64,000 bases of DNA, from the NCBI GenBank assembly GCA_965219095.1, contig CBDCMT010000001.1, forward strand, positions 1,024,001 to 1,088,000. Direction: 5' to 3'. The position numbers and the translations under genes are program-made. Shown here piece by piece: positions 1 to 21,227 of the stretch (position 1 is its first letter; every line of letters starts with the position of its first letter). Under the pieces are notes generated by a model, which saw nothing but the letters and a program-made list of their open reading frames with translations, was not told the DNA's origin and ran no database searches. Origin of the DNA: Bdellovibrionales bacterium (GTDB lineage Bacteria > Bdellovibrionota > Bdellovibrionia > Bdellovibrionales > UBA1609).

Positions 1-1043
1 TCATATGTCAGGGTTTCTATCAAAAAAAGAGCGAAAAGATTTACTCTATGAACTATCTCTAGAGAAAAATATTAAATACGTAAAAAGGATTATGACAATT
101 CTCCATTTAGATAAAGGTGAGTTGTGTAAAGATATTTCCCGTTTTCTTTTCATTGATGAGGGCACGATAAGAGCCTGTAGAGATCGTTATAACAAAGGTG
201 GGATAGAGTGCTTAATCAACGACAATTACAACCCTAAAAGGTCCTTTTTAACTAAAAAAGAGGAGAAAATGCTTTTAAAGGAGTTAGAAAAAAGAATTTT
301 TCCGTCATCACAGTCTGTTATTCAGTTCATTGAGGAGAATTTTGGTGTTACGTACTCAACAAGTGGTGCGATTGATCTTCTCCATCGCCTTGGTTTTTCT
401 TATAAAAAAGCCACAGCGATACCGGGTAAGGCAAAGAGAGAAGAGCAGAAAAAGTTTGTGCGTAAATACAAGAGAATTAAAAAGAAAGACGGTCCTGTTT
501 ACTTTGCTGATTCCACACATCCTGAGTGGGGCCCTACGATTTCATATGGTTGGATAAGAGAGGGTAAGAAGTTTGAAGTGAAGACCAATTCAGGCTGGAG
601 AAAAAGAGTGAATGTTTGTGGAGCTATTGAGATCAATAGTTTGAAGACGGTAGTCAGGAGTTATAAGACAGTTAACCATGTTTCCATATGTGATATGCTC
701 CATCATATTCGCAAGAAGCATCCCGATGAAAAAGAGATTCATCTTATCTTAGATGGGGCCGGATACAATAGATCGAAGTCTGTCAAGAAGTTAGCGAAAG
801 AGTTGAATATAAAACTTGTTTATCTTCCTCCGTACTCACCGAATTTAAATCCTATAGAAAGACTTTGGAAGTTTATGAAAAAAGAGGTCACGGCGAATCG
901 ATATTATGAAAACTATGACGATTTCAAGGGAAGTTTAAGTCAATTTTTTAGAGGAATACGAAAACACAGATCTAAATTAGAAACTTTGATAACTGATAAC
1001 TTCTCTATCTTAGGAAACTGAAAACCTAAACGGAAGCACTATA
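1..1043 (+). mobile_element. IS630-family element (left end outside window)
   Basis: Contains an IS630 transposase. Right end ctgaaaacctaaacggaagcacta|TA at 1018-1043 recurs as a terminal repeat at 49656-49681. Confidence 0.85.
5..1021 (+). CDS. IS630-family transposase
   Basis: N-terminal HTH; DDE motifs YFADSTH, LILDGA, LPPYSPNLNPIERLW. Confidence 0.95.
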   Translation: MSGFLSKKERKDLLYELSLEKNIKYVKRIMTILHLDKGELCKDISRFLFIDEGTIRACRDRYNKGGIECLINDNYNPKRSFLTKKEEKMLLKELEKRIFPSSQSVIQFIEENFGVTYSTSGAIDLLHRLGFSYKKATAIPGKAKREEQKKFVRKYKRIKKKDGPVYFADSTHPEWGPTISYGWIREGKKFEVKTNSGWRKRVNVCGAIEINSLKTVVRSYKTVNHVSICDMLHHIRKKHPDEKEIHLILDGAGYNRSKSVKKLAKELNIKLVYLPPYSPNLNPIERLWKFMKKEVTANRYYENYDDFKGSLSQFFRGIRKHRSKLETLITDNFSILGN

Positions 1044-1694
1044 TTTATCGGTTAAAAATTTGAGCTCATATATCGAAAAATTATTAAAAGTAGTCTCTAA
1101 ATCATCCATATCATTTACATCAGATGGTGATAGCTTGTCTAAAGACTCCTTGTATTGCTTTATTAGAAATTTTTCTTGTGTGCCTGCTATTTTCTGTAAG
1201 TTAGAAATATACTCATTCATAATACTGATTAGATTATCTTCGTTTAATTCACTCTCTTGTTTTGCATGAAAATAATTATTTCTTCTTTTAATAATTTTAG
1301 TAGAAGATTTTTCTAAAGAGTTGTCCTTTTCTGCAATGGTTCGAAATAGGCGAAAAACTGTCTTTTCATTAACTATAGAAAAGCTCGAAGGATGGATCTT
1401 CTCATCGCCTCCTACATACAGATCATTTTCTTCTCTAGAAAACCCACTTAAAGCAATAGAACGCTCCCTCTTCAGGGTATGATCATTTAATATACGGCTT
1501 AATTGATGATAAACTAAGGTCATGTAGAAAAGGTGGAGATAATAGAAAGCCCCCGTATAAATTTCAGATTCTATACATTTTGAAAAGCTTTTTAAATTAT
1601 ATTTTAAATATGTATTAGTTTTGCTATCAGATCTTATAGGAGTAAATTCGCATATTTGTGTTATTAAATTTTCCAAAACTACTTTGAATTCCAA
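1026..1694 (-). CDS. Hypothetical protein with HEPN-like RNxxxH motif; C-terminus runs into the IS630 end
   Basis: Helical 222-aa protein containing KRRNNYFH. Start overlaps the hsdMS stop; stop codon lies inside the IS630 terminal repeat. Confidence 0.55.
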   Translation of the reverse strand: MEFKVVLENLITQICEFTPIRSDSKTNTYLKYNLKSFSKCIESEIYTGAFYYLHLFYMTLVYHQLSRILNDHTLKRERSIALSGFSREENDLYVGGDEKIHPSSFSIVNEKTVFRLFRTIAEKDNSLEKSSTKIIKRRNNYFHAKQESELNEDNLISIMNEYISNLQKIAGTQEKFLIKQYKESLDKLSPSDVNDMDDLETTFNNFSIYELKFLTDKYSASV

Positions 1695-4162
1695 ACTTCT
1701 TCTATTTTTTTCTTAATTTTATTTTCGTTTATTTCGATTAGTTTTTTACAAGAACTGACACAGTCTTGCTCTTTTTCAATTTCAGCGACAATTTCTTTTT
1801 GAACTGAGAGAGGAGGGAGGGGGATTTGGATTTTTTCTAAATTACCTTTTGTTATATGGACTAAGCCCACTCCTCCATGTAAATTTTTTTCAACTTCAGA
1901 AACAACTTTTTTTAAGGATAAGTGTAAAAATTTTCTTATATACTTTGAAGAATGTTCAACCTTAAAAATATGTTGGTTCAATATCCCCATACCTTTATCC
2001 CATATATGAGAACCAAAGGAAGTTCCTTTTGAGCCAGACCATGAAAACAAAAGATCTCCTTTGTTGACTAGATACGTATCGTCAATTTTCTTAGAATAAT
2101 AATTGAAACTTGCATTAGGATTATTTAAATTCTGAATCCTTATTATAGGGATTCCAGATTCACTTTCTTTTTCCCAATCTGATGGCTTGAATGCCTTTCC
2201 ATTTATAAAATTACAAACATCCCCCAACTTCACCATAGGCCATTTGGGATCAATTTTAAAAGTCGGTTTCCAGTTTTCAACAACCTGTTTTGCACCATCA
2301 ATAATTTTTTGATAGCCGTCAATTTCAGCGACAATTTCTTTTTGGATTGAGAGAGGAGGGAGGGGGATTTGGAATGGGGATAGGTTTTGTCTAGTAATCT
2401 GAGGTTGTGCTGAACCTGAAATTATTTTAGATAAATCAGCTTCTATCAAGAGGTTAAATATAAATTTTTTATTTAACTCCTTTTCTTTTATTGGTTTTAT
2501 AACCATAGCATTACCAGTAATCCAAGATTGCTTTTCAGAAATATTGATATTTCCACAAGTTGCACCCCTACAAGTAACCAAAACCTCACTTTCTTCGTGA
2601 TTATATTTATCATATTTGCCAATAGGACCATTAGCACCAAAGACGACATATTTTCCAGACGAACTCATTTCTTTTTGCGAGATTGTTTTTGGTTGATAAA
2701 TCTCACACACATCCCCCAGCTTCACCATAGGCCATTTGGTAACAACCTTTTTCTGTGGTCTATAGAGATTCCCACTTAAATTCCAACTTCCTTCATCAAT
2801 AATCTTTTTCTTCTTACACCAAAAAGAAACCTCACTCTTTTCTTTGTTCTCCTTAGACCAAGATTTTAAAACTCGAAAAGCTTCTGGCAAATCATTTTCA
2901 TCAATCTTTCTTCGAGTAGCTCCAAGTTCAAAGCCATCATTTTGTACGTTCACAAATAAAATCTCATCGGACTTTTTAGCTCTTTTTCTATCTAAAAACA
3001 AAATAGAAGTTTTAACACCACTATAAGGCTCAAACACTTTAGCTGGAAGACTCACTACAGCCCAAAGGAAACTCCTTTCTACAAGCATTTTTCTTAAAGC
3101 CTTGTAAGCTTTGTCTGATTTAAAGATAATTCCCTCCGGCACAATAATACCTGCTCTTCCATTTAGCTTTAAGTGCTCTGCTATGTAATCTACAAATAAA
3201 ACTTCTGAGCGATTGGCTCGTACTGAAAACCTATTATGTGGCCTAATACCTCCTTTAGGCGTCATAAAGGGAGGGTTAGCTAATACGACATCAAAATCAT
3301 TTCCCCAACGATTATCACTTGTTAAGGTGTCGTATTCAAAAATTTTAGGCTCTTTAAACTTATGAAGGTACATATTAACTAATGCAAGCTTTACCATATC
3401 AGGAGATATATCATAACCTTCAAAGTTTTTCTGTAACTGTTTTCGCTCACTCAGCTTTAGCTTTTTACCTTCGTATCTGCCATTACTTTGAATTTGAATA
3501 GATAAACCGTCGTTTTCACTTCTTTCAAAACTGTGTTCAGGTTTTTTTGGATCATAATTCCTAGAGTTATTTTTAACAATATGTTTATAAGATGAAATTA
3601 AAAACCCTCCTGTCCCACAAGCTGGATCAAGCACTGATTCATTTTTCTTAGGATCTAAAACCTCCACAATAAAGTCGATAATATGTCTTGGCGTCCTAAA
3701 CTGCCCTGCATCTCCTTGGCTTCCTAAAATAGAAAGTAAATACTCAAAAGCATTGCCTAAATTTTCACTGTCATCATAGCTAAACCAGTCAATTTCTTTT
3801 AGGAATAAGCTTAAAGTTTCTGCATCTCTATAGGGGAGAAAAGCATTTTTAAAAACGTCTTTAAAAAGAGAGGGCAGTGTTTTATGTGTAGGGATTTGGT
3901 TAATAGCTTGAATGTAAAGATCAAGTCGTTCTTGGCCTGATAGCTTTTTTTCAATAATTTTAGGCCAACTGTATTTTTTAAACTCCCCTATAAAATAGGA
4001 AGCGTTTCCTCCATTCTCTCTAGACTCTTGATCTATGTCGTCCATAAATTTGTAAATTAAAGCTGTGGTAATTTGATCCACTTGAGCTTTGGGGTCGGGG
4101 ACTTTACCTACAAGGATGTTTCTCGCAGAGTCTATTCTTCTTTTTGTTTCTTGATCTAACAT
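1679..4162 (-). CDS. Type I restriction-modification fused N6-adenine methyltransferase + specificity subunit (HsdM-HsdS)
   Basis: GQFRTPRHI, DPACGTGGF and LANPPF motifs, followed by two TRD units each bounded by KWPMVKLGDVC ... IPLPPLS(I/V)QKEIVAEI. Confidence 0.93.
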   Translation of the reverse strand: MLDQETKRRIDSARNILVGKVPDPKAQVDQITTALIYKFMDDIDQESRENGGNASYFIGEFKKYSWPKIIEKKLSGQERLDLYIQAINQIPTHKTLPSLFKDVFKNAFLPYRDAETLSLFLKEIDWFSYDDSENLGNAFEYLLSILGSQGDAGQFRTPRHIIDFIVEVLDPKKNESVLDPACGTGGFLISSYKHIVKNNSRNYDPKKPEHSFERSENDGLSIQIQSNGRYEGKKLKLSERKQLQKNFEGYDISPDMVKLALVNMYLHKFKEPKIFEYDTLTSDNRWGNDFDVVLANPPFMTPKGGIRPHNRFSVRANRSEVLFVDYIAEHLKLNGRAGIIVPEGIIFKSDKAYKALRKMLVERSFLWAVVSLPAKVFEPYSGVKTSILFLDRKRAKKSDEILFVNVQNDGFELGATRRKIDENDLPEAFRVLKSWSKENKEKSEVSFWCKKKKIIDEGSWNLSGNLYRPQKKVVTKWPMVKLGDVCEIYQPKTISQKEMSSSGKYVVFGANGPIGKYDKYNHEESEVLVTCRGATCGNINISEKQSWITGNAMVIKPIKEKELNKKFIFNLLIEADLSKIISGSAQPQITRQNLSPFQIPLPPLSIQKEIVAEIDGYQKIIDGAKQVVENWKPTFKIDPKWPMVKLGDVCNFINGKAFKPSDWEKESESGIPIIRIQNLNNPNASFNYYSKKIDDTYLVNKGDLLFSWSGSKGTSFGSHIWDKGMGILNQHIFKVEHSSKYIRKFLHLSLKKVVSEVEKNLHGGVGLVHITKGNLEKIQIPLPPLSVQKEIVAEIEKEQDCVSSCKKLIEINENKIKKKIEEVWNSK
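1776..2373. repeat. 55-bp direct repeat pair (1776-1830 / 2319-2373) in HsdS conserved regions
   Basis: 53/55 identical by manual alignment. Confidence 0.9.
2217..2739. repeat. 31-bp direct repeat pair (2217-2247 / 2709-2739) in HsdS conserved regions
   Basis: 30/31 identical; encodes KWPMVKLGDV twice. Confidence 0.9.
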
Positions 4163-4171
4163 AATTAAAAT

Positions 4172-6697
4172 TTAATCCATATAAGTATTTAATGTCACAT
4201 AGTTTTTTACATACTCTGGGACTTTAGTCTGCCACTTAGTGTTGCCATTTAATGCCTTGAAATCCGTCATGCTAAAACCTGTGTAGTTGTGGAGATCCCC
4301 ATATTTCTTACTATCAATGATTTTCCTAAATTCACTATCTACAATATAAACACTCAAATAATTCTTAATAGGGAGAACGTGCTGATTTTCTGGCTTATAA
4401 ATAGAGACAAATTTCTCACACTCATCTTCTAAAAGTTCTTCTCTAGTTGGAAAACGATCAATAAAGCCAAAAGTTCGCTCTAAAACCTCTTTCCATGAAA
4501 GCCTTCTATCTAGATTTTCAGATATTCTTATCTTCTCTAAATTCAAATAAAGCTCTGGTTTATCCTCGTATTCATATCTTACAATATTTTCTGCCACTTG
4601 CCAATTCTCCTCTTCAACAGCCTTTTTGATTCGATTATCATTATAAAAAACCTCTTTAGCCTTACCCCATAATTCTCTATCAACTTTCATGCCAGCCTCA
4701 CCTACCTGTATTTCAGAGATAGTGCTTATTTTGTCCGGAACATGGATTTCAATCTCATCTATAGTTATGGGAGGACTTTCTTCTCCACTCCCGGCTTCTG
4801 CAGTTAATTGAGGTAGCTTTAAAGCTTCATCATAATTAAATTTTTCTTCAAAATACTCACAATTGGCAAAAAAATCAAAGAGTTTAAATTTTTCCTTTTC
4901 TATTTGGTGTTTTTTCTTGTTCTTGTCCTCATATTTAAATACAAACTTTCTCGTTCCTCGTCCTTTCATTTGCACAAAGTTAGTTGGAGAAAAAATTGGT
5001 CTCATTAAGCAGAGGTTTAAAATGTCTTGGCAGTCATAACCTGTTGTCATCATGCCTACTGTGACACAGACTCTTGTTTTACTGGTTTTATAGCCCTCTA
5101 AAAATTCTGTATAACCACTAAGTTTGTTGTTGGCAAAAAGAATAGTGTTTTGTTGAGAGTTTTCTGTATCAGAAGTGACTTGTCTAGCAAAATCTGAGTT
5201 GTATTTATCAGGCCACATCTTTTGAGCCATTTGATTTAAGATATGAGTGATTTTAGAAGCATGTTTTTGACTTACACAAAAAATGATAGATTTGCCAATT
5301 TCACCACTTATAGGATCTTTCAAGGCCTCTTCAAGGAAACTTTTACAAAAGACAATATTCGTTTTCTCGGAAAAGAACTTTTTCTCAAAATCCTTATTAA
5401 AAAAGGCTTGTTCTTCTTCACCCTCAGTATTTTCTATTTTAATGCTATATCCTTTTTCTGATAAAAGCTTTGTAGTAATTTCAGTTCTTGCATCGACAAC
5501 TATGGGGTTGATAAGATAGCCTTCGTTAACTCCGTCAACAGGACTATATTTAAAAGTAGGCTCACTGTTTTCACAGCCAAAGGTTGTATAGGTATCAAGC
5601 AAGAGTCTTCTCTCCCATTTTCTTTGGTCTTTTTCTGAAAGCTCCAGTTTATCTACATTTTTTAAATAGTCACGAGGAGTAGCGGTTAACCCCAACTTGT
5701 ATCCAATAAAGTACTCAAAGACAGAGCGACTGTTTCCGCTCATAGAGCGGTGAGCTTCATCTGAGATCAAAAGATCAAAGTCTGTTGGGGAAAAATGTTT
5801 CTTGTACTTATCCCCAGTTAAGAGGCTTTGAATTGTTGAAACAACAATTTCTGTTTTATTCCAATCGTCTTTATTTTGTTTATAGATTACACATTGGTAA
5901 TCTTTTTTTAAGTAATCTTGAAAATTTTTATAGGCTTGATCTTCAAGTTCTAGCCTATCTACTAAGAAAAGTACTCTTTTAGCATTTCCTGTTCTCAAAA
6001 AAAGTTTAATAATGGCAGCAGAAAGTAGAGTTTTACCTGTTCCTGTTGCCATTTCAAAAAGAAACCTTTGATTTCCTTTTTTTATTGACTCTTGAAGAGC
6101 TTTAACAGCATTTAACTGGTAGGGGCGTAAAATACGAACATTGCCCATTTCACAAATTTCTTTTCTGTATTGTGGATTACTCCAATTTGAATCCGCTAAA
6201 AGCTCAGGTTTCTGAGAAACAGCAATATAATCTTCCTCAACAGTTTCATTATGTAACAACTTAGGATTTGGCTGAAAATTCATTCTGTAAGTTAAAGACT
6301 CTTGGCTTGGAAGTTCTCTTATGATCTCAGGATTTCCTGTTTCTAAATCCCAAAAGTAATGAAGATTTCCATTTGATAAAATAACAAAACGAACGTTGAG
6401 ACCATGAGCATATTTTCTAGCCTGTTCTTTTCCGTCCAATGGATTTTTTTCTTCCTTTTTAGCCTCTAAAACCACAAGGGGAAAATTATTTTCATCGAGA
6501 AGTAAATAATCCACAAAACCATATTTTGTTTTTTCAAAGTCGTTTCCATGAGAAGCAATTTCACTTTGTGTGATTTTAACATTGGGTTCAAGCCTGATAT
6601 TAGCTTTACCATTGTTGTCGTCAGAAAATCGCCACCCTGCTTTTTCAAGGAGTTTGTTAATTTTTATGCGAGATTGGGCTTCTTTTTTGTTGGGCAT
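4172..6697 (-). CDS. hsdR: Type I restriction endonuclease R subunit (EcoEI/EcoAI-like)
   Basis: PD-(D/E)xK VDYLL..VLEAKK, Walker A MATGTGKT, DEAH, GLTATP, QMKGRGTR. Start set to ATG 6697 (MPNKK), just after the TIR stop. Confidence 0.92.
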   Translation of the reverse strand: MPNKKEAQSRIKINKLLEKAGWRFSDDNNGKANIRLEPNVKITQSEIASHGNDFEKTKYGFVDYLLLDENNFPLVVLEAKKEEKNPLDGKEQARKYAHGLNVRFVILSNGNLHYFWDLETGNPEIIRELPSQESLTYRMNFQPNPKLLHNETVEEDYIAVSQKPELLADSNWSNPQYRKEICEMGNVRILRPYQLNAVKALQESIKKGNQRFLFEMATGTGKTLLSAAIIKLFLRTGNAKRVLFLVDRLELEDQAYKNFQDYLKKDYQCVIYKQNKDDWNKTEIVVSTIQSLLTGDKYKKHFSPTDFDLLISDEAHRSMSGNSRSVFEYFIGYKLGLTATPRDYLKNVDKLELSEKDQRKWERRLLLDTYTTFGCENSEPTFKYSPVDGVNEGYLINPIVVDARTEITTKLLSEKGYSIKIENTEGEEEQAFFNKDFEKKFFSEKTNIVFCKSFLEEALKDPISGEIGKSIIFCVSQKHASKITHILNQMAQKMWPDKYNSDFARQVTSDTENSQQNTILFANNKLSGYTEFLEGYKTSKTRVCVTVGMMTTGYDCQDILNLCLMRPIFSPTNFVQMKGRGTRKFVFKYEDKNKKKHQIEKEKFKLFDFFANCEYFEEKFNYDEALKLPQLTAEAGSGEESPPITIDEIEIHVPDKISTISEIQVGEAGMKVDRELWGKAKEVFYNDNRIKKAVEEENWQVAENIVRYEYEDKPELYLNLEKIRISENLDRRLSWKEVLERTFGFIDRFPTREELLEDECEKFVSIYKPENQHVLPIKNYLSVYIVDSEFRKIIDSKKYGDLHNYTGFSMTDFKALNGNTKWQTKVPEYVKNYVTLNTYMD

Positions 6698-6699
6698 TT

Positions 6700-7194
6700 T
6701 TACCTTCCAGCTTGTTGAGCCGCTTTTTCGATCCAATCCCCTAAGCTTTGATGACCACTGTCAGTTATCCAGTTATAATAAGAACAACAAGGATATTCCA
6801 GAGTTCCACCATTATTGCTCTTGAAATTCATTGGTGGCTTGCTAAAAGGGTCTTCCCCCTTAGTTGATATATTACCATTTTGATCTTTTACATTATGAAT
6901 GTAAACCCCAAGTAAACCATTTTTTCTATCAAGACTCTTTCTTATTTCATAATTAACATATTGACTCTCAGAAGTACTGGAGCCAATTAAAACACAAGTA
7001 ACAGAAGTTCCTTTCAACTGCTCATCTATCCACTTTTCAATTGCTTCTTCTGTTCCTTTTTTAACCTTCTCAATATCAGAAGAGTCTATAAAGCCTGCGT
7101 TTTCATAGCTTCCTTTAGTAAGCCAGCTATGTCTAACTTGATTTATTCGCCAAACATCATCCCAATCAAAACTAAAAAATACTTTTCTTGCCAT
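6700..7194 (-). CDS. TIR-domain protein (MTH538/DUF1863, ThsB-like)
   Basis: MARKVFFSF.W.DVWR..QVR, SVTCVLIG, YVNYEI (catalytic Glu position), GLLGVYIH. Confidence 0.9.
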   Translation of the reverse strand: MARKVFFSFDWDDVWRINQVRHSWLTKGSYENAGFIDSSDIEKVKKGTEEAIEKWIDEQLKGTSVTCVLIGSSTSESQYVNYEIRKSLDRKNGLLGVYIHNVKDQNGNISTKGEDPFSKPPMNFKSNNGGTLEYPCCSYYNWITDSGHQSLGDWIEKAAQQAGR

Positions 7195-7212
7195 TTGTCA
7201 TACTCCTTTTAT

Positions 7213-7635
7213 TTAATAATTTGATTGCATTGTTATGAAGAAAACTAAAAATACAAATAATAACTGACCTATATAGAAAATGTTTAAAGTTAATGAAAAC
7301 ACAGATAAAATCCAATTACATTTTGATTTTTCAAAGTGTTTCGCCACATTCATTTCAAATTCAGTATCTTTTTGCACTCTCACATCATTATAAACTTTTC
7401 GAAATAATCGCTCCTGCCATAAAAAATACCCGTCTAAAATCCAAAAAAATATAACAGGAACAGAAAAAGATAAAATAATATATGGATTTTCCACATCAAA
7501 TCTTGCTATTAAAACAATAGAAGCAACAACCAAGGTCATACTCCAACCTTTTAAAAGAAAAGAGTTATGAGCTATTCGATTGACTACCTTTTGTATCATC
7601 TCTAAATGTCGAACTACCTTTTCTTCTGAATCCAT
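7213..7635 (-). CDS. Small ~3-TM membrane protein (HLEMIQ..NSFLLKGW family), candidate effector
   Basis: Three hydrophobic segments; motifs HLEMIQKVVNRIAHNSFLLKGW and FWILDGYFLWQERLFR; ends 18 bp before the TIR gene. Confidence 0.75.
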   Translation of the reverse strand: MDSEEKVVRHLEMIQKVVNRIAHNSFLLKGWSMTLVVASIVLIARFDVENPYIILSFSVPVIFFWILDGYFLWQERLFRKVYNDVRVQKDTEFEMNVAKHFEKSKCNWILSVFSLTLNIFYIGQLLFVFLVFFITMQSNY

Positions 7636-7922: not shown

Positions 7923-8561
7923 TCAGTTATTTTGGTTCTCAAAATGTTCAAAGGTTTTACGGCTAAACTTTCCAAAAGTAATGATTTCTGTTCGTGGTAT
8001 AATGACTTCCATATCAATCAAATCAAAGTGGTTTTCATATTTAGGATAATAAGTGTTCCAGACTACCTCCTTTGTTTCTTTTTTTCTGTATCCACTCTTA
8101 AACGGTACTATAGAAATTGTTTGAGACTCATGTCTTGATTTTGGATTTTCTGGATATTTCCATAAAAGACCTTGATAGGTCTTTCCGTTTTTAAGAGTCA
8201 TTAAAACTTCTTTTTTGTCCCATTCAATACATTTTTTATAAAAGTTATCTTGTACTGGTAGAAATATCCACTTAGCAATGAATTCAATTTGAGCTAATAA
8301 TAGTAAAGCAGGCGTAAAAATTAATGATGCAATTAATAATATAAATAATTTCTTTTTTAGCCCCTCAAGACTACATGTTTCCATAATTAATTCAGCAGGA
8401 AGCCAAGTTAAAGCTGCTATCAAAACAAGGGTAAAAATATAAGGCCAGCCTGAAAGATTAACAGCTGTTGCTGCTAATCTTTTAGCAGGCCTATGTTTAT
8501 TATAAAAATGAATGAAAACTATTCCGGGAATAGCCCAAAGAATATTATGAAAGTCTAGCAT
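7923..8561 (-). CDS. Membrane protein with C-terminal soluble beta domain (DUF6338-like)
   Basis: Three N-terminal TM helices followed by VLMTLKNGKTYQG and EVIIPRTEI. Confidence 0.55.
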   Translation of the reverse strand: MLDFHNILWAIPGIVFIHFYNKHRPAKRLAATAVNLSGWPYIFTLVLIAALTWLPAELIMETCSLEGLKKKLFILLIASLIFTPALLLLAQIEFIAKWIFLPVQDNFYKKCIEWDKKEVLMTLKNGKTYQGLLWKYPENPKSRHESQTISIVPFKSGYRKKETKEVVWNTYYPKYENHFDLIDMEVIIPRTEIITFGKFSRKTFEHFENQNN

Positions 8562-8567
8562 CTGGTT

Positions 8568-8774
8568 TTATGAGCTTTGTTTTTTTGCAACTGATTTGTT
8601 ATGAGCTCTAATTGCTCGTTGTACTTCGGGATCATTCCAGAGCTCTTCTGCTGTTGGCCAAGGTTCTGCTGCTGTTCCTTTTTTACGGAAAAGCCAGTTT
8701 CCATAACCTAATTTTTGTTTTTTCTCTTTTGTTTTTTGTGTTGGTTTCACCCTATCTTTAATCCTTTTGGCCAT
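8568..8774 (-). CDS. Small basic hypothetical protein
   Basis: GAGG SD before ATG 8774; ends 6 bp before the next gene. Confidence 0.55.
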   Translation of the reverse strand: MAKRIKDRVKPTQKTKEKKQKLGYGNWLFRKKGTAAEPWPTAEELWNDPEVQRAIRAHNKSVAKKQSS

Positions 8775-8926
8775 AAATAAAAACCTCATTACCTAATTCT
8801 CATTTTACAGTCAAAAAAAGCAAAGAGCAAGTTAAAAAATCACGGAAATTTCTTGGTGTATTATAAAGGTGCCAAAAAAGAATACGTTGTCTTGTGACGT
8901 GGGCTTGGAGCTATCAACCATTTGAT

Positions 8927-11668: not shown

Positions 11669-12201
11669 GTGCTATCTATGAAGACACTCATTATCTTAGC
11701 CTCTTTTTTTCTTGTATCTTGCTCTCATTTTTCAAACTCTCAAACCAAAAGAGATGTTTTCAAAAAAGTAGCTTTAAGTATCGTGGTTGGCGGTATTTAC
11801 GGCTCTACTTTGAAAGAAAACAAAAAGAAGAATGTTCTGCTCTTTTCCAGTCTTTTAGGTTTAGGGGTAGGAGTTTATGGTCTTTATCATCTTGATGAAA
11901 GTAAGCAACTTAAAGTCTTAAAAAACAACTTTCAGAATTAAAAGAAACAAAGGGTCTTACTTTTTTAGGGAAAAATAAAGCTCTCCTGCAACAAGGAGAA
12001 GTTCCTTTTTATAAAAAAGGACTTCCTTCTCATTTAAAGCACCTTGTTGTACCCAGCGAATGGAGTCTTTATGAGTTGGAAGAGGAAATAGGTGGAAAAG
12101 AATGGATACAAGTTGAAGTTTTGAAAGTTTTAAAAGGAAATAGGCTTTTTGAGTTAAAGCCTTCAAAAATCAACCCTTATTTACGAAAGGAGATGAAATG
12201 A
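11669..12201 (+). pseudogene. Lipoprotein with glycine-zipper-like segment, split by a -1 frameshift at an A6 run (11920-11925)
   Basis: Lipobox LVSC. One extra A joins ...KVLK to KQLSELKETKG...RKEMK*, whose TGA overlaps the pilin ATG. Confidence 0.65.
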
Positions 12202-12464
12202 AAAAGCATATAATCTTTATGTTCATTTTAATGATTTGTTTTTGTCTTGAGGCACGAGATTTAGAAGCCAGTTTAAGAGACATCAGTGAGACTGTAAGAA
12301 GTATAGGGATCATTTTAGGTGTTCTTTCTTTTTTGGTTTCAGGAGTTTGTTTTTACTTTTCAAAAAGTACAGGCATAGAGAGGTTTCAATCAGCAGCTGT
12401 AGGAACGCTTATTTTTGCCACCTCATCGACTATTTTTTCTATTATTTTTAATTCATTTAACTAG
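12198..12464 (+). CDS. VirB2/TrbC-like conjugative pilin
   Basis: Signal peptide plus two hydrophobic helices, 88 aa, upstream of virB3/virB4. Confidence 0.7.
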   Translation: MKKHIIFMFILMICFCLEARDLEASLRDISETVRSIGIILGVLSFLVSGVCFYFSKSTGIERFQSAAVGTLIFATSSTIFSIIFNSFN

Positions 12465-12476
12465 AGGAAGGAAGTT

Positions 12477-12749
12477 ATGCACAGTTCAAAGATATTAAAT
12501 AAGCAGTCAAATTTTTTAGGTCTAAGTACTTCTGATTTTCTTTTTTTAAGTGGGTTTTACATGCTCTCTCAAGCTTTGCTTTTCCCTTTAGGTTTTGAGT
12601 TTTTTGGATTGATCCTTGTTATTCTACTTTTGTTTTTCCTGATTCCTATAAGGTTAAAGTACAGAAAGAAAATTATAAGAAATACTCTTTTTTATCTTTT
12701 TATAAAAATTTTTAAACGAGGATTTGTGAATGTTTATAAAAAAGTATGA
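12477..12749 (+). CDS. VirB3/TraL-like membrane protein
   Basis: 90 aa, two TM segments, FLGLS motif, overlaps the virB4 start. Confidence 0.6.
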   Translation: MHSSKILNKQSNFLGLSTSDFLFLSGFYMLSQALLFPLGFEFFGLILVILLLFFLIPIRLKYRKKIIRNTLFYLFIKIFKRGFVNVYKKV

Positions 12750-14826
12750 GAAACTAAAGGACTACACTTGGCTTTCTAGAGGATTTTTAGGGAAAACCTT
12801 TAAGCTGTGTTTAAAAGATTTTGAAAGCCTTGAGAACGAAAACCTTTACAATTCTATAGAGAATTTTTTAAAGAACTTAAGAGTAGAAGACTACGCTAGC
12901 TTTTCTTTGTTTTCCAGTGTTTCTTATGACTCTAGCTTTGATAACAAGAGGAGAAATGATTTAAAAAAGGTTGGTTTTGTGAAAAAAAGACTTTTTTTCA
13001 ACATCTTCTCTCAAAAGAAAACCCCTCTTTTTTGTAAAAAAAGTGAGATTTTTGAGCAAATGGAAAGCATCAATCAGTTTTCTGATAGCTTTCTAGAACT
13101 AAAGCCTATTTTCATTAAATCCTTTTTTAAAAAACTATTTAATGTTGAAAGGTTAAAACTTGAACCTTTTGGCTTTTCTAACAAAGACGAGGTTTTAGGG
13201 ATTTTAAAACTTCATACTCTTTCTAGCTCTCTTTTAGATTTAAAAAATCTAATTTTTTTAACAGAAAGACTCCCTCTTCCTTTTGAGTATCATATAAAGA
13301 TCAAAAAAATTGATAAGTTCAAACAAAGAGCAAGCCTTTCAAGACAAACTAAGCAGGAGGCTAGAGAGGTCAGTCAAGAGAGTTTTTTACGCTATCAGGC
13401 TACTCAGGAAGCCTTGTGTGATATGGAGCTTAGAGGAAATGATTTTTTTCAGTTTGAGGTGCACGTTGTGTTAAGAAGGGATTCCAAAAGAGTTTTGAGA
13501 AATGACCTTCTTCTTTCTCAAAAAGAACTTACTTTACTTGGTGATTTTCACATGGAAACTGTGGGAGCTTTTTCTTCCTTTTTATCTTTATTACCAGCCC
13601 ATAGTTTCCATGTTCCTTTAATATGTCAGGATAGAGAACTGGGGTGTTTTCTCCCTCTTTTCACAAGAGGAGTAGGAGGGTTTCAAGCCTCAAAATCCTC
13701 TCTTATTTATCACAGAGTTGATCAATCTTTAGATGAATTTAATCCTTTCCACAAGGATTATGATAACTACTGCGGAGTGGTTATTGGAAAATCAGGACGG
13801 GGGAAGTCTGTTTTTACTAATCTTCTTCTTGGCAGTCTTTCTTATGACCAAAGCCTTAAAGTCATTTTGGTTGATGTAAAAGGTTCTTATCAAAAGAGAA
13901 TTAAAGAGCTTGAAGGACAAACTTATAACATATCGGTGGACAAGTCTTGTGCTCTTGACCCTTTTAGACAGCTTACAAACAAAAAAGAAAGTATTGAAAT
14001 CATTTTATCTTTTTTGAAATCTTTAATTGCAGAAAAGCTCTCACCTCGAGAAGAATCAAACCTTGAAAGAAGCCTTATAGAGTACGCAAGCCAAGCTCAA
14101 ACCCCAAGCCTAGAAGAGTTTGTAAAAACATTAAAGAGTTTTCAAAAAATACACATTTTAGAGAGGTGGACTAAAGGCTCTTTAAAAGAAAATATTTTTT
14201 CAAACTCAGACTCCAATTTTGAATTAAAAAATCTAAATTATTTTAACTTTAGTGAAATTATGACAGCTCAAGATAGGGACACCTCTTTAGCTGTCATGTC
14301 GGCTGTGATGAGTGAGTTCTCTCACCAGCTCTTAGAAAAAGAAGATCATGACAAACTCATTTTTATTGTGGATGAAACACCTTTTTTCATTCAGCACTCT
14401 TTTGAGACCTTTAAACTTTTGAGTAAAAACGTAAGAAAGCTTAACGCTTCTCTTCTTCTTATAGCTCAAGTTTCAAGTGATTTGATTTTAGGGGGTGACA
14501 GGTCTCTTATTGACAATAGTGAATTTAAAGTTCTTTTTTCCCTTGATGACCAAGAAAAGGTCTTTCAGCAAAGATTTTCTCTTAGAGAAGAGGAAATGGA
14601 GGTTTTAAAACAATTAAGGACAAAAAAAGGTGAATACTCTCAGTTTTTATTGAAAGACTCACTTTGTTCTAAAGTGGGGTTTTTACGATTAAGTGACAAA
14701 GAGTACATACAAGTCACAACAAACCCTAAAGAGTTTCAAAAACTAAACACTCTTAAAAAAATGTACCCTTTTTATAGTGATGAAACATTATCCCAAGCCT
14801 TTAGATTTTTAGAGAGGTTATCATGA
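12730..14826 (+). CDS. VirB4/TraC-family conjugative ATPase
   Basis: Walker A GKSGRGKS, ILVDVKGSY, Walker B IVDE, RKLNA, KKGEYSQFL. Confidence 0.88.
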   Translation: MFIKKYEKLKDYTWLSRGFLGKTFKLCLKDFESLENENLYNSIENFLKNLRVEDYASFSLFSSVSYDSSFDNKRRNDLKKVGFVKKRLFFNIFSQKKTPLFCKKSEIFEQMESINQFSDSFLELKPIFIKSFFKKLFNVERLKLEPFGFSNKDEVLGILKLHTLSSSLLDLKNLIFLTERLPLPFEYHIKIKKIDKFKQRASLSRQTKQEAREVSQESFLRYQATQEALCDMELRGNDFFQFEVHVVLRRDSKRVLRNDLLLSQKELTLLGDFHMETVGAFSSFLSLLPAHSFHVPLICQDRELGCFLPLFTRGVGGFQASKSSLIYHRVDQSLDEFNPFHKDYDNYCGVVIGKSGRGKSVFTNLLLGSLSYDQSLKVILVDVKGSYQKRIKELEGQTYNISVDKSCALDPFRQLTNKKESIEIILSFLKSLIAEKLSPREESNLERSLIEYASQAQTPSLEEFVKTLKSFQKIHILERWTKGSLKENIFSNSDSNFELKNLNYFNFSEIMTAQDRDTSLAVMSAVMSEFSHQLLEKEDHDKLIFIVDETPFFIQHSFETFKLLSKNVRKLNASLLLIAQVSSDLILGGDRSLIDNSEFKVLFSLDDQEKVFQQRFSLREEEMEVLKQLRTKKGEYSQFLLKDSLCSKVGFLRLSDKEYIQVTTNPKEFQKLNTLKKMYPFYSDETLSQAFRFLERLS

Positions 14827-15434
14827 CAAAATTTTTCACCCCCTTAATTTTATTATTTTGTCATGATGCCTCTTGTTTTATCGATGCTTTTTTTAAGCCT
14901 GTAGAAAAGGTAGCTGACAAGGCTTTAATTTTAGATTCTCTTTCTGATCTGTTAAACGAGTTAAAGGGTAACAAAGACCTTGAGAAAGAACTCAAGCTTT
15001 TAAGCCAAGACATTTCTGATTTTGAACATGAAGCAAGAAGCTACAAGTACCTTTCAAAAGACCTTAGAAATATCTTAAACCCTTCTTTCAACTCTCTTCA
15101 AAGCCTTCACCAGAAGATCAGATATTCTACAAACTATATGAGAAGAGTAAAAAATTTCAAGAAAAGACTTCTTAACAAGTTCGGATCTTCGTCTTCTGCA
15201 GTAACAGCTAGTGAACAGATGAATACCAACTCTCTTTTGAACGAAACTTTAAGAAATCAGCACCTTTCAGAGATAAGAAGAGAGAGAAAAAGAATCGCTA
15301 AACAAAGACAAAAATTAAAGTCTTTGAGAGATGAAAAACAGTTTTTAAAAAAGCAATTTCACGAGATCAATAGACATTCTAAACATTATGGTTTTGGAGC
15401 CTTCTTTCCTTTTAAGAACAGGAGTGAGAAATGA
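14823..15434 (+). CDS. Exported coiled-coil T4SS-associated protein (VirB5/TrbJ position)
   Basis: Signal peptide, helical, located between virB4 and virB6-like genes. Confidence 0.5.
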   Translation: MTKFFTPLILLFCHDASCFIDAFFKPVEKVADKALILDSLSDLLNELKGNKDLEKELKLLSQDISDFEHEARSYKYLSKDLRNILNPSFNSLQSLHQKIRYSTNYMRRVKNFKKRLLNKFGSSSSAVTASEQMNTNSLLNETLRNQHLSEIRRERKRIAKQRQKLKSLRDEKQFLKKQFHEINRHSKHYGFGAFFPFKNRSEK

Positions 15435-16543
15435 CAGATTTCCCTTTTCATTATGATATTTTCTTAAAAATGCTTGATGTTTTTAAGTCTTTTAGAGGTG
15501 AGCTTATAAAGTTCTTCCCTCTAGTTTTTCTTTTCAGAGTTATTTTTAGTTTTATAACTTTTAAAAATACTAATGATTTTATGACTCTTTTGAAAGACAC
15601 TTTTATTTTATGGGGTTTATTTTACTTTTTTTACGATTTTGTCATTTTTTCAGTTCAGATTCCTTCTTTTTTAAGCTCTACGTTTCAAACAGATGAAATC
15701 TTTGAAGTCATTTTAGAAGATAACAGTTGGTTTACCTTTTTTACAGCAAGGTTAGGCAGTTGGTTTGCTGTTTTATCTTATTGGATCAGTTTTGGGCTTT
15801 ATATTTTTATGATCTCTCTTTTTATTCTCTTTAGCCCCTTTGTGTTTTTTATGAGTTCAAGTCTTTCTTCTTATGGAGCGTTCAAAGTTTTCTTAAGCTC
15901 ATTTATTTTCATTCTTCTTTGGCCTATTTTTTGGTATGGGATCAACTTTACTTTAGTTGAAATTCTCTTAGGAGAAAATGCTTTTGTAAATCATGTTATT
16001 TTGATCTTAGGAAATTTCTTAAAGGTTATTTTTCCTTTATTTTTTATAGGTTTTATAGCCAAGTTTTCATTAGTCAGTAAGCTAGGCTCTGTTGCAAAAG
16101 GAGTTGGTCTTGTAGGAGCTTCAAAGTTTGCAAACAATAAAACTGTGCAAACTATAAAAGCTGTAGGAGGTGATCATTACCTCACCCAAGCCTCTAAAAC
16201 TTTTCATCAAGCTAAGAAGAATCTTTATAAAAAACTAGGAGGTAATCCTTTCCATATGAAAAATGACATCACTCATACCTATAACCACAATAAAAAAGAC
16301 TCTATAGCAACTCATTCTCACTTCTTACAAAAACAAAGCTCTTCTTCTCACGACAAAAAAACTCACCTTAAACACAAAAGCAAAACTCAAGATTTCTATG
16401 AAAAAAACCTCGTCCTTAGAGATAGACCAATGATAAACTCTCAAGACATAGGTTCAAAGAATTTTGAACCTCAAAATTCACAAAAAAAATCACTAAACGA
16501 AAGGAGACAAAATGAGAACATTTCTAAAACTCATCAAAGATGA
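15431..16543 (+). CDS. VirB6/TrbL-like polytopic membrane protein
   Basis: 5-6 TM segments plus a low-complexity hydrophilic tail. Confidence 0.6.
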   Translation: MTDFPFHYDIFLKMLDVFKSFRGELIKFFPLVFLFRVIFSFITFKNTNDFMTLLKDTFILWGLFYFFYDFVIFSVQIPSFLSSTFQTDEIFEVILEDNSWFTFFTARLGSWFAVLSYWISFGLYIFMISLFILFSPFVFFMSSSLSSYGAFKVFLSSFIFILLWPIFWYGINFTLVEILLGENAFVNHVILILGNFLKVIFPLFFIGFIAKFSLVSKLGSVAKGVGLVGASKFANNKTVQTIKAVGGDHYLTQASKTFHQAKKNLYKKLGGNPFHMKNDITHTYNHNKKDSIATHSHFLQKQSSSSHDKKTHLKHKSKTQDFYEKNLVLRDRPMINSQDIGSKNFEPQNSQKKSLNERRQNENISKTHQR

Positions 16544-17051
16544 ATTTGTGTTTTATACATTGATTCTTTCTCTGTTCTTATGGGGCTTTTCTTCAAGCCT
16601 TTACTTAATTTTTAAAGAAGATAGGAGTTTTGTTATAGAAAAAGACTCTCAAGGGTTTTTAAAGATTCTAGGAACTAAAGACCTTTCTTCTAGAAGAGAG
16701 GTGTTTTTAAGGTTGTTTGTCATACTAAGTTTTAACTACGATACAAGTTCTTTTAAAAAGAACCTGTCTATGGCAGGAGAGCTTATGAGTGATGAGTTTT
16801 GGAGAAAAAAGAGAGCTTATTTTCTTAAAGTCTTTGAAGAGGTGAGGATGAAAAAAATCTCTCAATTTGCAGAGATTTCAAAACTCATAGAAACTTCAAA
16901 CAATACTTATAAAGCTCATTTGAACATCATTATCTTTCAAGGCAAACAAAAGACTGAAAAAAAGGGAAAACTTCTCATCAAGCTGCAAAGTGCAGAAATG
17001 AGAGCTCAAAATTTATATGGATTCGAGGTGTATGATGTTCAAATTTTATAG
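16512..17051 (+). CDS. TraE/VirB8-like protein
   Basis: Single N-terminal TM, NTF2-like pattern, C-terminal R..NLYGFEV motif. Confidence 0.65.
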   Translation: MRTFLKLIKDEFVFYTLILSLFLWGFSSSLYLIFKEDRSFVIEKDSQGFLKILGTKDLSSRREVFLRLFVILSFNYDTSSFKKNLSMAGELMSDEFWRKKRAYFLKVFEEVRMKKISQFAEISKLIETSNNTYKAHLNIIIFQGKQKTEKKGKLLIKLQSAEMRAQNLYGFEVYDVQIL

Positions 17052-18121
17052 TATATTGGTGCTTCTGTTTTTGTAACTGCTCACTCTCGTAAGTTTTTAT
17101 TTAAAGCCATAGAGATGGCTTCTAAAGAAGAATACCCTCTATTTCTCATTGTTTTAACATAGCTGGTAATACGACAAAAATATTTCGCCATTTCTTCTGT
17201 TCTGAAACACCCTGACACTTTCTTTTTCACTTTAGTCATTCTTAGATCTCTTTCAGCTCTGTTATTAGTAGGATCTACGTTCTTTCTTTTAGCAAAGCAC
17301 AGTATTTCTGCTTCATACTTTTTAAATCGCACCAAAGGTTTTGAGCTTGTGTATGCTTTATTCGTCCTTTCTTGCCATTTTTCTTAGGAAATTCTGGAAG
17401 CTCTTTTAAGCCTTTTGTAAGAATACTCCTATACCTTCTCTGAAGAGTTTCGTACTCTTTTTGAGTCAGAACTCTTGACTCTTTTTTATGAACTAACTCC
17501 ACAGTCTCTTTAAGAAGTTTTTTGAGATTTGTAGCCCATTTGAATCCATTGCTTTCTTCTATAAATTTAAGCTCTCTCAAAAGGTGAGCCACACACAAAG
17601 CATGAGTTATCTTATCATAACAAAAGTAAGGACTCCAACAATCATGCACAAGCACTCCTCCATATCTATCCAAGAGACCAATATCTTTTATGGCTTCCCT
17701 TCCACCTGAAAGGTGGAGAAACTGCAAGACTAATTCTCCTGAACTATAAGTATGAATCCAGTAGTTTTTACCCTTAACCCTCATAGAGGTCTCATCAACA
17801 TGAATGACCTCTGATTCAAGTATCTTTTCTTTCATCTGCTCTTCCCAACTTTTAAGAAACTCTCCTAATTCAGCAATGTATCTCAACATAACTGCAGGAG
17901 AAATCATTCGACCTATAAGCCCCATGTAATGTTCCCCAACACGCTCTAAAAGACAGCATCTGAACTATAATGAAATTGATGATGGAAGCTCTAATGCCTA
18001 TACCATACTGAAGAGGACCACTCATACCTTTAGGGAATTGACCTTTATTTCTAGCTCCACATGAGGGACAATCCTTAACTTCAGAAGTTACAGTATGGGT
18101 CTGAATTTCATAAAAAATATC

Positions 18122-19641
18122 GCCTCCTCAAAAGAATCTGTGGGTTCCCGGAGGTTCTGGCAGTTTTCCAAGGTTATGATATAAGGCGATTTTTATAGCT
18201 TTAGAGGTTCTAAAGCCGTAAGATTTTCTCATAGTGAGTTTTACTTTGTTGTTTAAACCCTCTACAATCCCTGAGGAGAAGGTTTTTTTAGCCTTGAAGT
18301 AATTAAGAATAAGTAGCTTATGTCTTCGTATGGTTTTTGCTTCTCTTTTCATAGGTTCAATTTTTGAAAGCATGACTCGTTTCGTCCAACTGTCTATAAA
18401 TTTACCAGCCCAAGTTGGTGAAACATAGGTCCATAACTGTCGGAAGTCTTCTTTTAAAAAATAACAGCGGATACTTTTTAAATTGTACTGTATTAAATGC
18501 CTTAATTTTACTTTTTCATAAGATTTTAAATTTTCTGCATTTTTTAACAAGGGCCATCTAGCTTTTGTTAAAAGGGGTTCATACCCGTCTTCTTTCATTT
18601 TTTTGTGTTCTGAAGCTCTCACTTCATCTAAAGCCTTATTGAGTCTTGCTACGATATGAAACCGATCTAATATATTCAAAGCTTGACTTGCCCTTTCCTT
18701 TATTACTTTTAAATAGGGCTTCCACATATCAGAACACACAAACTGTATATCTTTTGACTTCTCTCCTAGTAAATCAAAGAATTTTCTAAAACTCTTTTCT
18801 GTTCTTTTTTCTCCTATCCATAGCAAACGAACACTTTCTTTGCTTATTTCATAGACTAAGGTGAGATACTGATGGTTCTTTTTCCATTGTATTTCATCTA
18901 CACCTATAGCTTGTATTCCCTTTAAAACCCTTTGTTTTAAACCATATTCTACGACCCATTCTACCGAAGCATAGACCTGATTCCAACTGACATGAAACTT
19001 ACAAGAAACCTCTTTCCAAGACAGGTGACGACACCAGTCAGCTAAGTACTTCATGTAAAAAATTGTTAGGTTTTTCTTCCCATCTGCCCAAGGTAAATAC
19101 TCAACTTTTACTCCACAGCAAGAACAATTAACTCTTCTTACAAAATAAACAAAAAACACCCTGTAACTTAAAATAGGAAGGGATTCAAAGTCCCGTGATG
19201 ATTTACTGCTGTCATACACTGAACAGGGCTTCTTACAAACACTACAAAAAGCTTGGCCATTTTTACGAGCCTTAATAGGAACATTAATTGACTTTCTATC
19301 TTTTGAAAAATAAATGTCTCCGTATACAAAAGACTTCCATCTTAAACAATCATTTAGTATAGTCTTCAAAAGCATCTCTTCCCTCCTTTTTTTTTTTTTT
19401 GAATAACATTTTAAGGCATCTGGGAAGTAGGTGCTTCTTTTTTAAAATTTTAATGTAACACAGCAAATAAAAGCAAATAAAATGAATGTTTTTGAGTTCA
19501 ATCACCGGAGGTGATAGAGGCCAGTAAGGGCCTCAAAGAACTCAAAAATACAAGATAGAATGTCTTACTCTTACTTTGATTAATATGAGCTCTTTTGGGG
19601 GATTTCTACTACTTTTCACCCACAGATTCCCGGGAGGAGCC
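18122..19641 (-). mobile_element. ISL3-family element (copy 1)
   Basis: Imperfect TIRs ggctcctcccgggaatctgtggg / gcctcctcaaaagaatctgtggg; 8-bp TSD aaaatatc at 18114-18121 and 19642-19649. Confidence 0.93.
18128..19375 (-). CDS. ISL3-family transposase
   Basis: Zn finger CxxC..CxxC, IGVDE, CSDMWKPY, LDRFH, VEGLNNKVK..RKSYGFR. Confidence 0.95.
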   Translation of the reverse strand: MLLKTILNDCLRWKSFVYGDIYFSKDRKSINVPIKARKNGQAFCSVCKKPCSVYDSSKSSRDFESLPILSYRVFFVYFVRRVNCSCCGVKVEYLPWADGKKNLTIFYMKYLADWCRHLSWKEVSCKFHVSWNQVYASVEWVVEYGLKQRVLKGIQAIGVDEIQWKKNHQYLTLVYEISKESVRLLWIGEKRTEKSFRKFFDLLGEKSKDIQFVCSDMWKPYLKVIKERASQALNILDRFHIVARLNKALDEVRASEHKKMKEDGYEPLLTKARWPLLKNAENLKSYEKVKLRHLIQYNLKSIRCYFLKEDFRQLWTYVSPTWAGKFIDSWTKRVMLSKIEPMKREAKTIRRHKLLILNYFKAKKTFSSGIVEGLNNKVKLTMRKSYGFRTSKAIKIALYHNLGKLPEPPGTHRFF

Positions 19642-20519
19642 AAAATATCAATCTTTTTACGCTTTTCAAGGCTTTTTACCTCTGCTGTCTTTAAAAACAT
19701 CCCACACTGAGAACACTCTGAGGGAGAGACAGTCTCCTCGCTGTTTTGTATCTTTACTGATAAGCCTAGAGCCCTTTTTTTGACTCTCCCTAGCCTTCTT
19801 ATTACGATTCCCTTGACGACTAAAATCTTGCGAAGGAGGAAGACCGCTGTTGCTGGAATTTTTTCGAACCTGTTTTTCTAAAAGCACAACAATCAGAATG
19901 TTCACAACCTTAAAGAGAGATTCAACAATCACAGAAATCTCAGTAGGCACAGAACCTTTCTTTGCAAACTTATCAAAGTCACTTCTTATATTTTCAATCT
20001 CATTTCTGATGGAGGTCTTATTTATTGTCATTTGAAAAAAGTATTTAAAAGAAAATCTGTAAGAGCAAGACTTTTATCTTAAAACAGGTCTAAAGTTAGG
20101 GATAACTGAACAATGTAGGTGAGCAGTTACCTGTTTTTTTCTGAGCTTACTTTAGCTAAAGTTCAAAGGCTTTCCAGTCAGTTTGTTAATTTATCAAAGC
20201 CTTTGAAGGTTTATGTTCATCCTGGAAGAGTGAGTCTTTTAGAGTTTCCTTGTCATATTGAAAAAACAGTTATGGGTTCATCTTCTGATCTAAAAGTTCA
20301 TATAGTAGAAAAGTATCCTAAACAGATTTTTTTATGGTTAAAAAATTACAAAGCTCAATCAACCAATCTTATTATCAACTGTGAGAAAAAAGTTTTTATC
20401 ATAGATATTTTAGCTTCTCATACTAACCACCAGGACTATGTTAAAATTTTATCTAGTTTTGAAGTCCCTAAGATAAAAGCAAAGAAGATTGACGGATCAA
20501 GAATGAAAGGACGTTCAAA

Positions 20520-21227
20520 GTGAGGTGGTTTTTCTTTTTAGTTGTTTTTCATCATTATGTTTTAGCTTTTCAAGGGGTGAAAGTGAAAATTTCCCCTTTG
20601 CCCCAAGAAAAAAGAAGGAAAATTCGCTCTCTAGAAGATTTGCCCTCTCGTAAAAACATGAGGGGAAATCTTTCAAGAGAGCTTTTAAGACATTCTTCAA
20701 AGCTGACTCAAGGTGAGGTCATTTATGTGAAAGAAACAATTCCTCGGTTAGGTGATGTTTTATCTCTTAAAATCTCTTTTGACCTTTTCACTTCGTCCTT
20801 ATTCTCGCAACCTGTCGTAGCTCAAGTGATAGGGGGAAAGTTTCAAGGCTCAAGACTTGTAGGAAAAGCAACTCTTAATACCTCTACAAAACAAGTTCTT
20901 ATTGTTTTTGAAAAAATGAAGCTTTTTAACTCAGAAAAAGAGATAAGTCTAAAGGCTCAAGTTTTTTTCAAGGATAAAAAATTTGATATGAGAAAAGTTC
21001 AGCACAGAGACTCTCAGGAGATCTTAAATTATCTTTTAGAAAGAGCCTCTTATCTTCTTAAAGAAGAGAATAAAACTCTTTCAGAAAGTCTTTTAGAGGC
21101 TAAAAACTTTCAAAGTTATTTAAAAACTGTAATAAAAAAAGGAGGTTACCTTGTTTATCTCAAAGCCCCTCTTTTTGTAAAAGCTGTTGTGCTGAAAACT
21201 CATCAAACGAAAGGAGAAAATAAGTGA
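20520..21227 (+). CDS. VirB10/TrbI/TraB-like protein
   Basis: Signal peptide; PVVAQV..G.FQGSRLVGKA...VLIVFEKM beta pattern; follows TraK. Confidence 0.55.
   Translation: MRWFFFLVVFHHYVLAFQGVKVKISPLPQEKRRKIRSLEDLPSRKNMRGNLSRELLRHSSKLTQGEVIYVKETIPRLGDVLSLKISFDLFTSSLFSQPVVAQVIGGKFQGSRLVGKATLNTSTKQVLIVFEKMKLFNSEKEISLKAQVFFKDKKFDMRKVQHRDSQEILNYLLERASYLLKEENKTLSESLLEAKNFQSYLKTVIKKGGYLVYLKAPLFVKAVVLKTHQTKGENK

Follow-up and report, generated by a model that had tools for sequence, protein, structure and literature searches.

A 64,000-nt stretch of a Bdellovibrionales genome (hereafter the window) carries a gene for a Thoeris-like TIR protein next to a gene for a very small membrane protein, instead of next to a SIR2 or Macro ThsA. 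This arrangement raises the question of whether the two genes form an immune signalling pair of a new kind, as the first-pass annotation had proposed, or belong to a system that has already been described.

The pair and its genomic setting

Both genes lie on the minus strand (6700..7635) as unbroken ORFs, the membrane gene first and the TIR gene second, and together they head a minus-strand type I restriction-modification (RM) run:

7213..7635, minus strand: gene for a 140-aa effector with three transmembrane segments (PADLOC PDC-M50A); probable ThsF (DUF2270-like fold)
7203..7207, minus strand: Shine-Dalgarno-like AGGAG read from the sequence, 8 nt ahead of the TIR start and within the intergenic gap
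6700..7194, minus strand: ThsB-type TIR gene, 164 aa, with Glu83 at the catalytic position and Tyr79 at the tryptophan position of WxxxE (PF08937, PADLOC ThsB1, PDC-M50B)
4172..6697, minus strand: hsdR, type I restriction subunit, likely ATG start (PADLOC REase_I, E 6.8e-60)
1679..4162, minus strand: hsdM-hsdS fusion (methyltransferase plus specificity subunit), 827 aa (Pfam/PADLOC)

The gap between the membrane gene and the TIR gene is 18 nt, and the TIR stop is separated by 2 nt from the ATG of hsdR, after which comes the hsdM-hsdS fusion. The first-pass annotation had made the membrane protein the only partner of the TIR; to this it should be added that the pair leads directly into the type I RM genes. 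Judging from the spacing, the pair and hsdR are probably carried on one transcript; a promoter scan performed at chance level (8 promoters found, 8.5 expected). A 222-aa ORF of no known family overlaps the 3' side of hsdM-hsdS (region 1026–4162, minus strand). Two ORFs stand just upstream of the pair on the same strand (7923–8789), one of 73 aa that is basic and one of 212 aa whose N-terminal part contains membrane segments. Neither gave a Pfam or PADLOC match and their NCBIfam match was weak; the two are possibly another defence-island pair. Insertion sequences are abundant in the window, and conjugation-like genes for a TraG/VirB4-type ATPase, a replication-relaxation protein and a TrwB-like coupling protein are found at 12198–23092. 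Transposases break up these genes, and the element that carries the defence genes is probably an integrative one in decay.

The membrane protein family and its TIR neighbours

Each of the four PDC-M50A models listed from PADLOC matched the 140-aa protein (best E 2.1e-38, residues 5–134 on model positions 3–131 of 134). Pfam, DUF2270 included, gave no match for it, and NCBIfam gave none for either member of the pair. Hydropathy placed three hydrophobic segments at approximately residues 25–46, 49–73 and 109–139, and the structure model is all-helical and confident (pLDDT 94.8), with a long hairpin (helices 3–46 and 58–86) followed by a C-terminal helix (115–139). The three transmembrane segments annotated from the letters alone were thus confirmed, and the polar motifs quoted in the same reading proved to be conserved across 119 relatives, in which R20 is invariant and H10, Q15, S25, F26, K29, W31, D68, E75 and R79 are each kept in at least 90%. 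The conserved charged residues are found mostly on the parts of the hairpin outside the hydrophobic segments, where they may face the cytoplasm and build a pocket. A four-copy complex prediction of the membrane protein gave a median of 0.23 (mark, 0.42). No solved relative was found in a PDB sequence search with the alignment, Foldseek on the PDB gave no match at E 0.001, and the best VIA-align match (Z 10) was to generic helical bundles.

The protein is the sole copy of its family in its own genome. The family as a whole comprises 3,686 clusters at 50% identity and is present in 142 plasmid records; it was found in 2 of 201 genomes of the window's phylum and, the seed genome aside, in 6 of 300 Bacteroidota. 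To characterize its neighbours we used 127 loci, none selected for a TIR: 4 hand-picked plasmid loci, 43 genome loci (AT-biased motif) and the best 80 of 252 metagenome matches, with 112 distinct membrane-protein sequences among them. A TIR neighbour within 700 bp and on the same strand was present in 102 of the 127 (64 via a profile of the window TIR's relatives, 38 via Pfam at E up to 0.01). Three further loci had a CAP12-type TIR (one locus) or a DUF4062 protein (two loci), and in nine the TIR match was partial, more distant or on the opposite strand. The remaining 13 had no TIR, and in 4 of these the contig extended <330 bp on one side. The Pfam scan of neighbours covered 90 of 92 ORFs, all but an annotated dcm and a further membrane-gene copy, and no cyclase or CD-NTase family was among the matches listed for these 90. 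On these counts, the comparison proposed in the first-pass annotation, of TIR genes with other signal synthases as neighbours, speaks for its reading. The link was less clear-cut among six unselected Bacteroidota loci, in which a TIR neighbour was confirmed by Pfam in two, a TIR-like start could be seen by eye in two, and two were without.

When the loci were centred on ThsB instead, 60 genome loci contained the membrane family four times, TM-Macro four times, 8xMP four times and SLATT twice, and the membrane family was present in seven of eight viral ThsB-centred loci. In the only other match of the phylum sample (locus L220, genome G105), a different TIR precedes the membrane gene and a SIR2 gene comes after it, an arrangement that fits independent acquisition. 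Loci L004 and L059 each have the membrane gene in two divergent copies, and in L004 each copy adjoins its own TIR.

Relation to type V Thoeris

The pair corresponds to PDC-M50 of PADLOC: both window proteins match over nearly their full length, and the genes are adjacent. The PDC set was built from genes embedded in RM, BREX and DISARM loci (Payne et al., bioRxiv 10.1101/2024.01.29.577857), and the window pair likewise abuts a type I RM cluster; we found no difference between the pair and PDC-M50, which is a prediction only. From the PDC name we infer that PDC-M50 belongs to the set of Payne et al.; the name PDC-M50 itself appears neither in the accessible part of that text nor elsewhere in the literature searched.

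A tested counterpart is described in the accessible part of a preprint in which 29 putative Thoeris types are annotated and seven new ones verified (Yirmiya et al., bioRxiv 10.64898/2025.12.03.692087). There, the type V effector ThsF is annotated as DUF2270, is predicted to cross the membrane with three helices, and is modelled as a heptameric ring whose subunits have basic pockets between them. Type V was shown to defend against phage, and Tad1 weakened this defence. Its TIRs make 3'cADPR upon infection, and the addition of 3'cADPR had a toxic effect with the B. thuringiensis system and none with that of Bacillus sp. 1NLA3E. Type V is present in approximately 1.2% of genomes, and 122 DUF2270-linked TIRs cluster with the type I and type IV TIRs. 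The accessible text of this preprint contains no mention of PADLOC or PDC. It was the only relevant source in a literature search on types V and IX, ThsF, DUF2270 and 8xMP, and the accessible parts of PMC13232231, PMC13728456 and 10.64898/2026.04.20.719644 hold nothing on type V.

The window pair resembles type V in having two genes, a ThsB TIR of the cluster that serves type I, three membrane helices with a weak likeness to DUF2270, conserved basic residues (here H10, R20, K29, R76 and R79) and a frequency of approximately 1–2% of genomes. It differs in that the window effector falls below the Pfam DUF2270 model and the window TIR belongs to the FSFDWD subfamily, with Tyr in WxxxE. Going by the description of ThsF, we consider it likely that the membrane protein is ThsF and that the pair is a type V Thoeris. 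One system probably goes by both names, PDC-M50 and type V Thoeris. Counted against the assignment to type V are the missing Pfam match, the subthreshold DUF2270 links, the nearness to 8xMP, the absence of the preprint's strains from the matches listed, the second type V system with its lack of response to added 3'cADPR, the loci of the family without a TIR (13/127), the Bacteroidota loci, of which only two of six were Pfam-confirmed, and Tyr79.

Several weak tests point towards a link to DUF2270, and each of them is below the usual thresholds. In a Foldseek search against viral models, the top match of the membrane protein was a DUF2270 protein (probability 1.00, query TM 0.76, E 0.16), aligned as a helical hairpin with an rmsd of 5.6 and 9% identity; such hairpins match easily. 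The matched model (BFVD A0A3G4ZN31) is annotated to a giant virus (Terrestrivirus sp.). A structure model of strict DUF2270 opens with the same two long helices as the window protein. At E up to 0.1, PF10028 matched 9 of 119 relatives of the membrane protein versus 1 of 98 for 8xMP; at the strict cut-off (25 bits) the window protein had no match, and the best relative reached E 0.0043. On a local DUF2270 profile, at least 5 bits were reached by 51 of 391 family sequences versus 0 of 49 unrelated membrane ORFs, and the best alignments shown are in register (GW on NW, LD on LE). Among the ORFs of 68 TIR-centred loci, the three highest DUF2270-profile scores (7.7, 7.4 and 5.6 bits) belonged to the membrane family, with the next score close behind (5.5 bits). 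The profile-profile probability to DUF2270, against a strict profile that is shallow (10 sequences), was 12.5%, or 0.6% with close relatives only, compared with 1.0% for 8xMP. Iterating the family profile did not raise DUF2270 to significance. A strict DUF2270 gene was present in one Bacteroidota genome out of 301 and in nine Pseudomonadota genomes out of 201; the 151 genomes sampled from the window's phylum had none, nor did the window's own genome, and no TIR was among 13 neighbours from 8 of 10 strict DUF2270 loci. Because strict DUF2270 genes were without TIR neighbours in this sample, the effector that the preprint labels "DUF2270" beside TIRs probably comes from a remote family of the kind seen in the window. 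Housekeeping and transport genes surround the strict DUF2270 genes (L128, L139–L147). The strains that the preprint names were absent from the 43 named-genome matches (AT-biased motif) and from the plasmid matches listed (60 of 142).

The pair might work in the same way and yet belong to another Thoeris type, either type IX (ThsJ) or a membrane-effector type that is so far a prediction within the set of 29, possibly with another ADP-ribose product; we regard this as rather improbable. What speaks for it is mainly 8xMP (RipA-family octameric membrane protein, PF24838), another small membrane family that stands beside ThsB TIRs in the four genome loci mentioned above (L192, L194, L201 and L202). 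The window family is nearer to 8xMP (profile 48%, a weak likeness; ESM Atlas 0.87, the nearest clusters there with a common Pfam family) than to the shallow DUF2270 profile. 8xMP is distantly related to both the window family and DUF2270, so that a remote DUF2270 label could fit either, and the accessible preprint text leaves the type IX effector without description. On the other side, the window family is nearer to DUF2270 than 8xMP is, both in Pfam matches and in profile-profile probability; it holds the top three DUF2270 scores, thin as their margin is, and DUF2270 is the top viral structure match. The two families also differ in that the window protein has no PF24838 match and three 8xMP proteins tested had no PDC-M50A match. 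These three had no PADLOC match at all, and 8xMP may be the effector of one of the other Thoeris types.

Type I Thoeris of Bacillus cereus MSX-D12 provides the closest solved TIR, with an aligned catalytic Glu and likely the same messenger, but its effector is ThsA, a SIR2-SLOG NADase, whereas the window effector is a small membrane protein. No match to SIR2_2 (PF13289) or STALD (PF18185) was found in the window's own genome, which is 94% complete, the STALD negative being the weaker one as its control was without signal. For type II (TM-Macro), the 140-aa protein has no Macro domain and the genome no PF20016 (again a weaker negative, with a silent control). For the caspase-like type IV, the genome has no Peptidase_C14 (PF00656), in a search whose control gave signal. 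TIR_2 likewise had no match in the genome. The lack of a SIR2, Macro or caspase gene, annotated for the window, extends to the genome as far as it is assembled, with the STALD and Macro searches as its softer parts. For type VII, the membrane protein had no SLATT match in a library that detected SLATT beside other TIRs. Finally, PycTM and PucTM of Pycsar and Pucsar are also effectors with three transmembrane segments below a nucleotide messenger, PucTM being a hexameric channel according to the accessible part of bioRxiv 10.64898/2026.08.12.744502. Their partner is a nucleotide cyclase, whereas that of the window protein is a TIR. No Pycsar effector model matched, and the neighbours of the membrane gene in the window are the TIR and the 212-aa gene, with no cyclase or CD-NTase.

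As a PDC-M50 pair and very probably a Thoeris of type V, a type with proven phage defence, the pair is not new; it is of a common and already catalogued kind. A match to a characterised system was what the first-pass annotation had named as evidence against its proposal, and such a match is largely what we found. The locus adds one more member to a Thoeris type reported in approximately 1% of genomes. As a Pfam scan overlooks these effectors, cases of a "TIR without a known ThsA" will go on seeming new.

Variants, catalytic residues and proposed working

Among the 150 best representatives and the plasmid matches, fused forms of the membrane family surfaced. P0221 (378 aa) is a C-terminal fusion of the membrane family to a SLOG cluster 2 domain; P0268 (362 aa) looks similar by eye and has no Pfam match. 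The SLOG domain is a sensor of cADPR, and for this reason the fusion may be a version that carries its own receptor. On the Gordonia terrae plasmid CP049837.1 (L150:2542–3564), a fusion of HIT with the membrane family directly follows a ThsB TIR, and its HIT part matches PADLOC ThsC2; HIT annotations were also seen under matches in Mycolicibacterium and Rhodococcus plasmids. In addition, the effector adjoins large proteins of TIR-NACHT, TIR-beta-propeller (TIR-WD40), LRR-Roc-TIR and DUF4062-NB-ARC-TPR architecture (L008, L031, L013, L022, L110 and L122), which suggests that NLR-like sensors signal to the same pore. Such sensor-linked and fused variants may already be in the supplements of the type V preprint. 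It is conceivable, and in our view unlikely, that the PDC-M50A/ThsF family is a general messenger-gated pore with branch-specific signals and that the window branch uses an undescribed ADP-ribose product. An undescribed messenger could also account for the type V system that, of the two tested, did not respond to added 3'cADPR. Were this so, the pair would yield an immune messenger not known before, along with a receptor-pore of 140 aa suited to studying changes of ligand specificity.

The TIR itself matched Pfam ThsB_TIR (PF08937, E 1.7e-23), PADLOC ThsB1 (E 2.6e-59) and PDC-M50B (E 9.5e-55, residues 1–161), and a profile search found no second ThsB_TIR match in its genome. Its closest solved relative is PDB 9b7d/6lhy (E 2.5e-28, residues 1–126), the ThsB of the B. 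cereus MSX-D12 Thoeris (Manik et al., bioRxiv 10.1101/2022.05.07.491051, accessible part). Glu83 was invariant in 65 of 65 aligned TIR relatives (chosen among the 120 matches listed out of 375), and so the intact TIR with a catalytic-position Glu that had been annotated stands. Within YVNYEI, this residue stands opposite the Glu in the RWVRYEI motif of B. cereus ThsB, a Glu that we take to be catalytic E85. The tryptophan position of WxxxE is occupied by Tyr79 in the window protein, the relatives having Trp in 60, Tyr in 4 and Phe in 1 of the 65, and Gln78 stands in place of the usual Lys/Arg.

These two substitutions, together with the richness of the window in insertion sequences, could mean that the pair is a decaying copy, of the defence family still but with a TIR that has drifted and no longer signals. 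We hold this to be very unlikely: both frames are complete and unbroken, none of the invariant columns has been lost, Glu83 included, and Tyr is found at the WxxxE position not only in the four relatives but also, according to the accessible text of Manik et al., in two of the twelve enzymes proven to be cyclases, so that Tyr79 is no mark of a dead enzyme. Least probable of all is a reversal of roles, in which the membrane protein senses or anchors and the TIR is an NAD+-depleting toxin with no diffusible messenger: the accessible preprint text does caution that the TIR may be the effector in unverified pairs (bioRxiv 10.64898/2025.12.03.692087), and the CAP12-type TIR in one locus is of an effector type and the DUF4062 neighbours in two are NADases, but the window TIR falls into the signalling clade as a stand-alone ThsB, and its cyclisation position is occupied by an aromatic residue. 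Moreover, the one membrane family occurs with very different TIR proteins, upstream or downstream, which fits small-molecule coupling, and in some proteins it is fused to SLOG or HIT nucleotide-binding domains.

We thus favour the reading of the locus as a two-gene type V Thoeris anti-phage system, identical to the PADLOC PDC-M50 pair and acting by a 3'cADPR-gated breach of the membrane, and consider it likely. Phage infection would switch on the ThsB TIR, which would cleave NAD+ at Glu83 and cyclise ADP-ribose, most likely to 3'cADPR. The messenger would bind between the subunits of a ring of the membrane protein, in basic pockets located where its two long helices reach into the cytoplasm; there the conserved H10, R20, K29, E75, R76 and R79 are candidate pocket residues. 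The ring would then breach the inner membrane, and the infected cell would stop or die, aborting the infection. Phage defence, the production of 3'cADPR, its toxicity (in one of two systems) and the predicted ring are carried over by analogy from the members studied in the preprint, and pore formation is a model even for those. The gating of a membrane effector by a TIR product, as proposed in the first-pass annotation, is the best reading and probably right; the novelty attached to it is unsupported. The same is true of the "different messenger" suggested there, given the nearness of the TIR to B. cereus type I ThsB and the production of 3'cADPR by the TIRs of type V. At this locus the pair would provide a second line of defence, probably co-expressed with the downstream restriction-modification genes.
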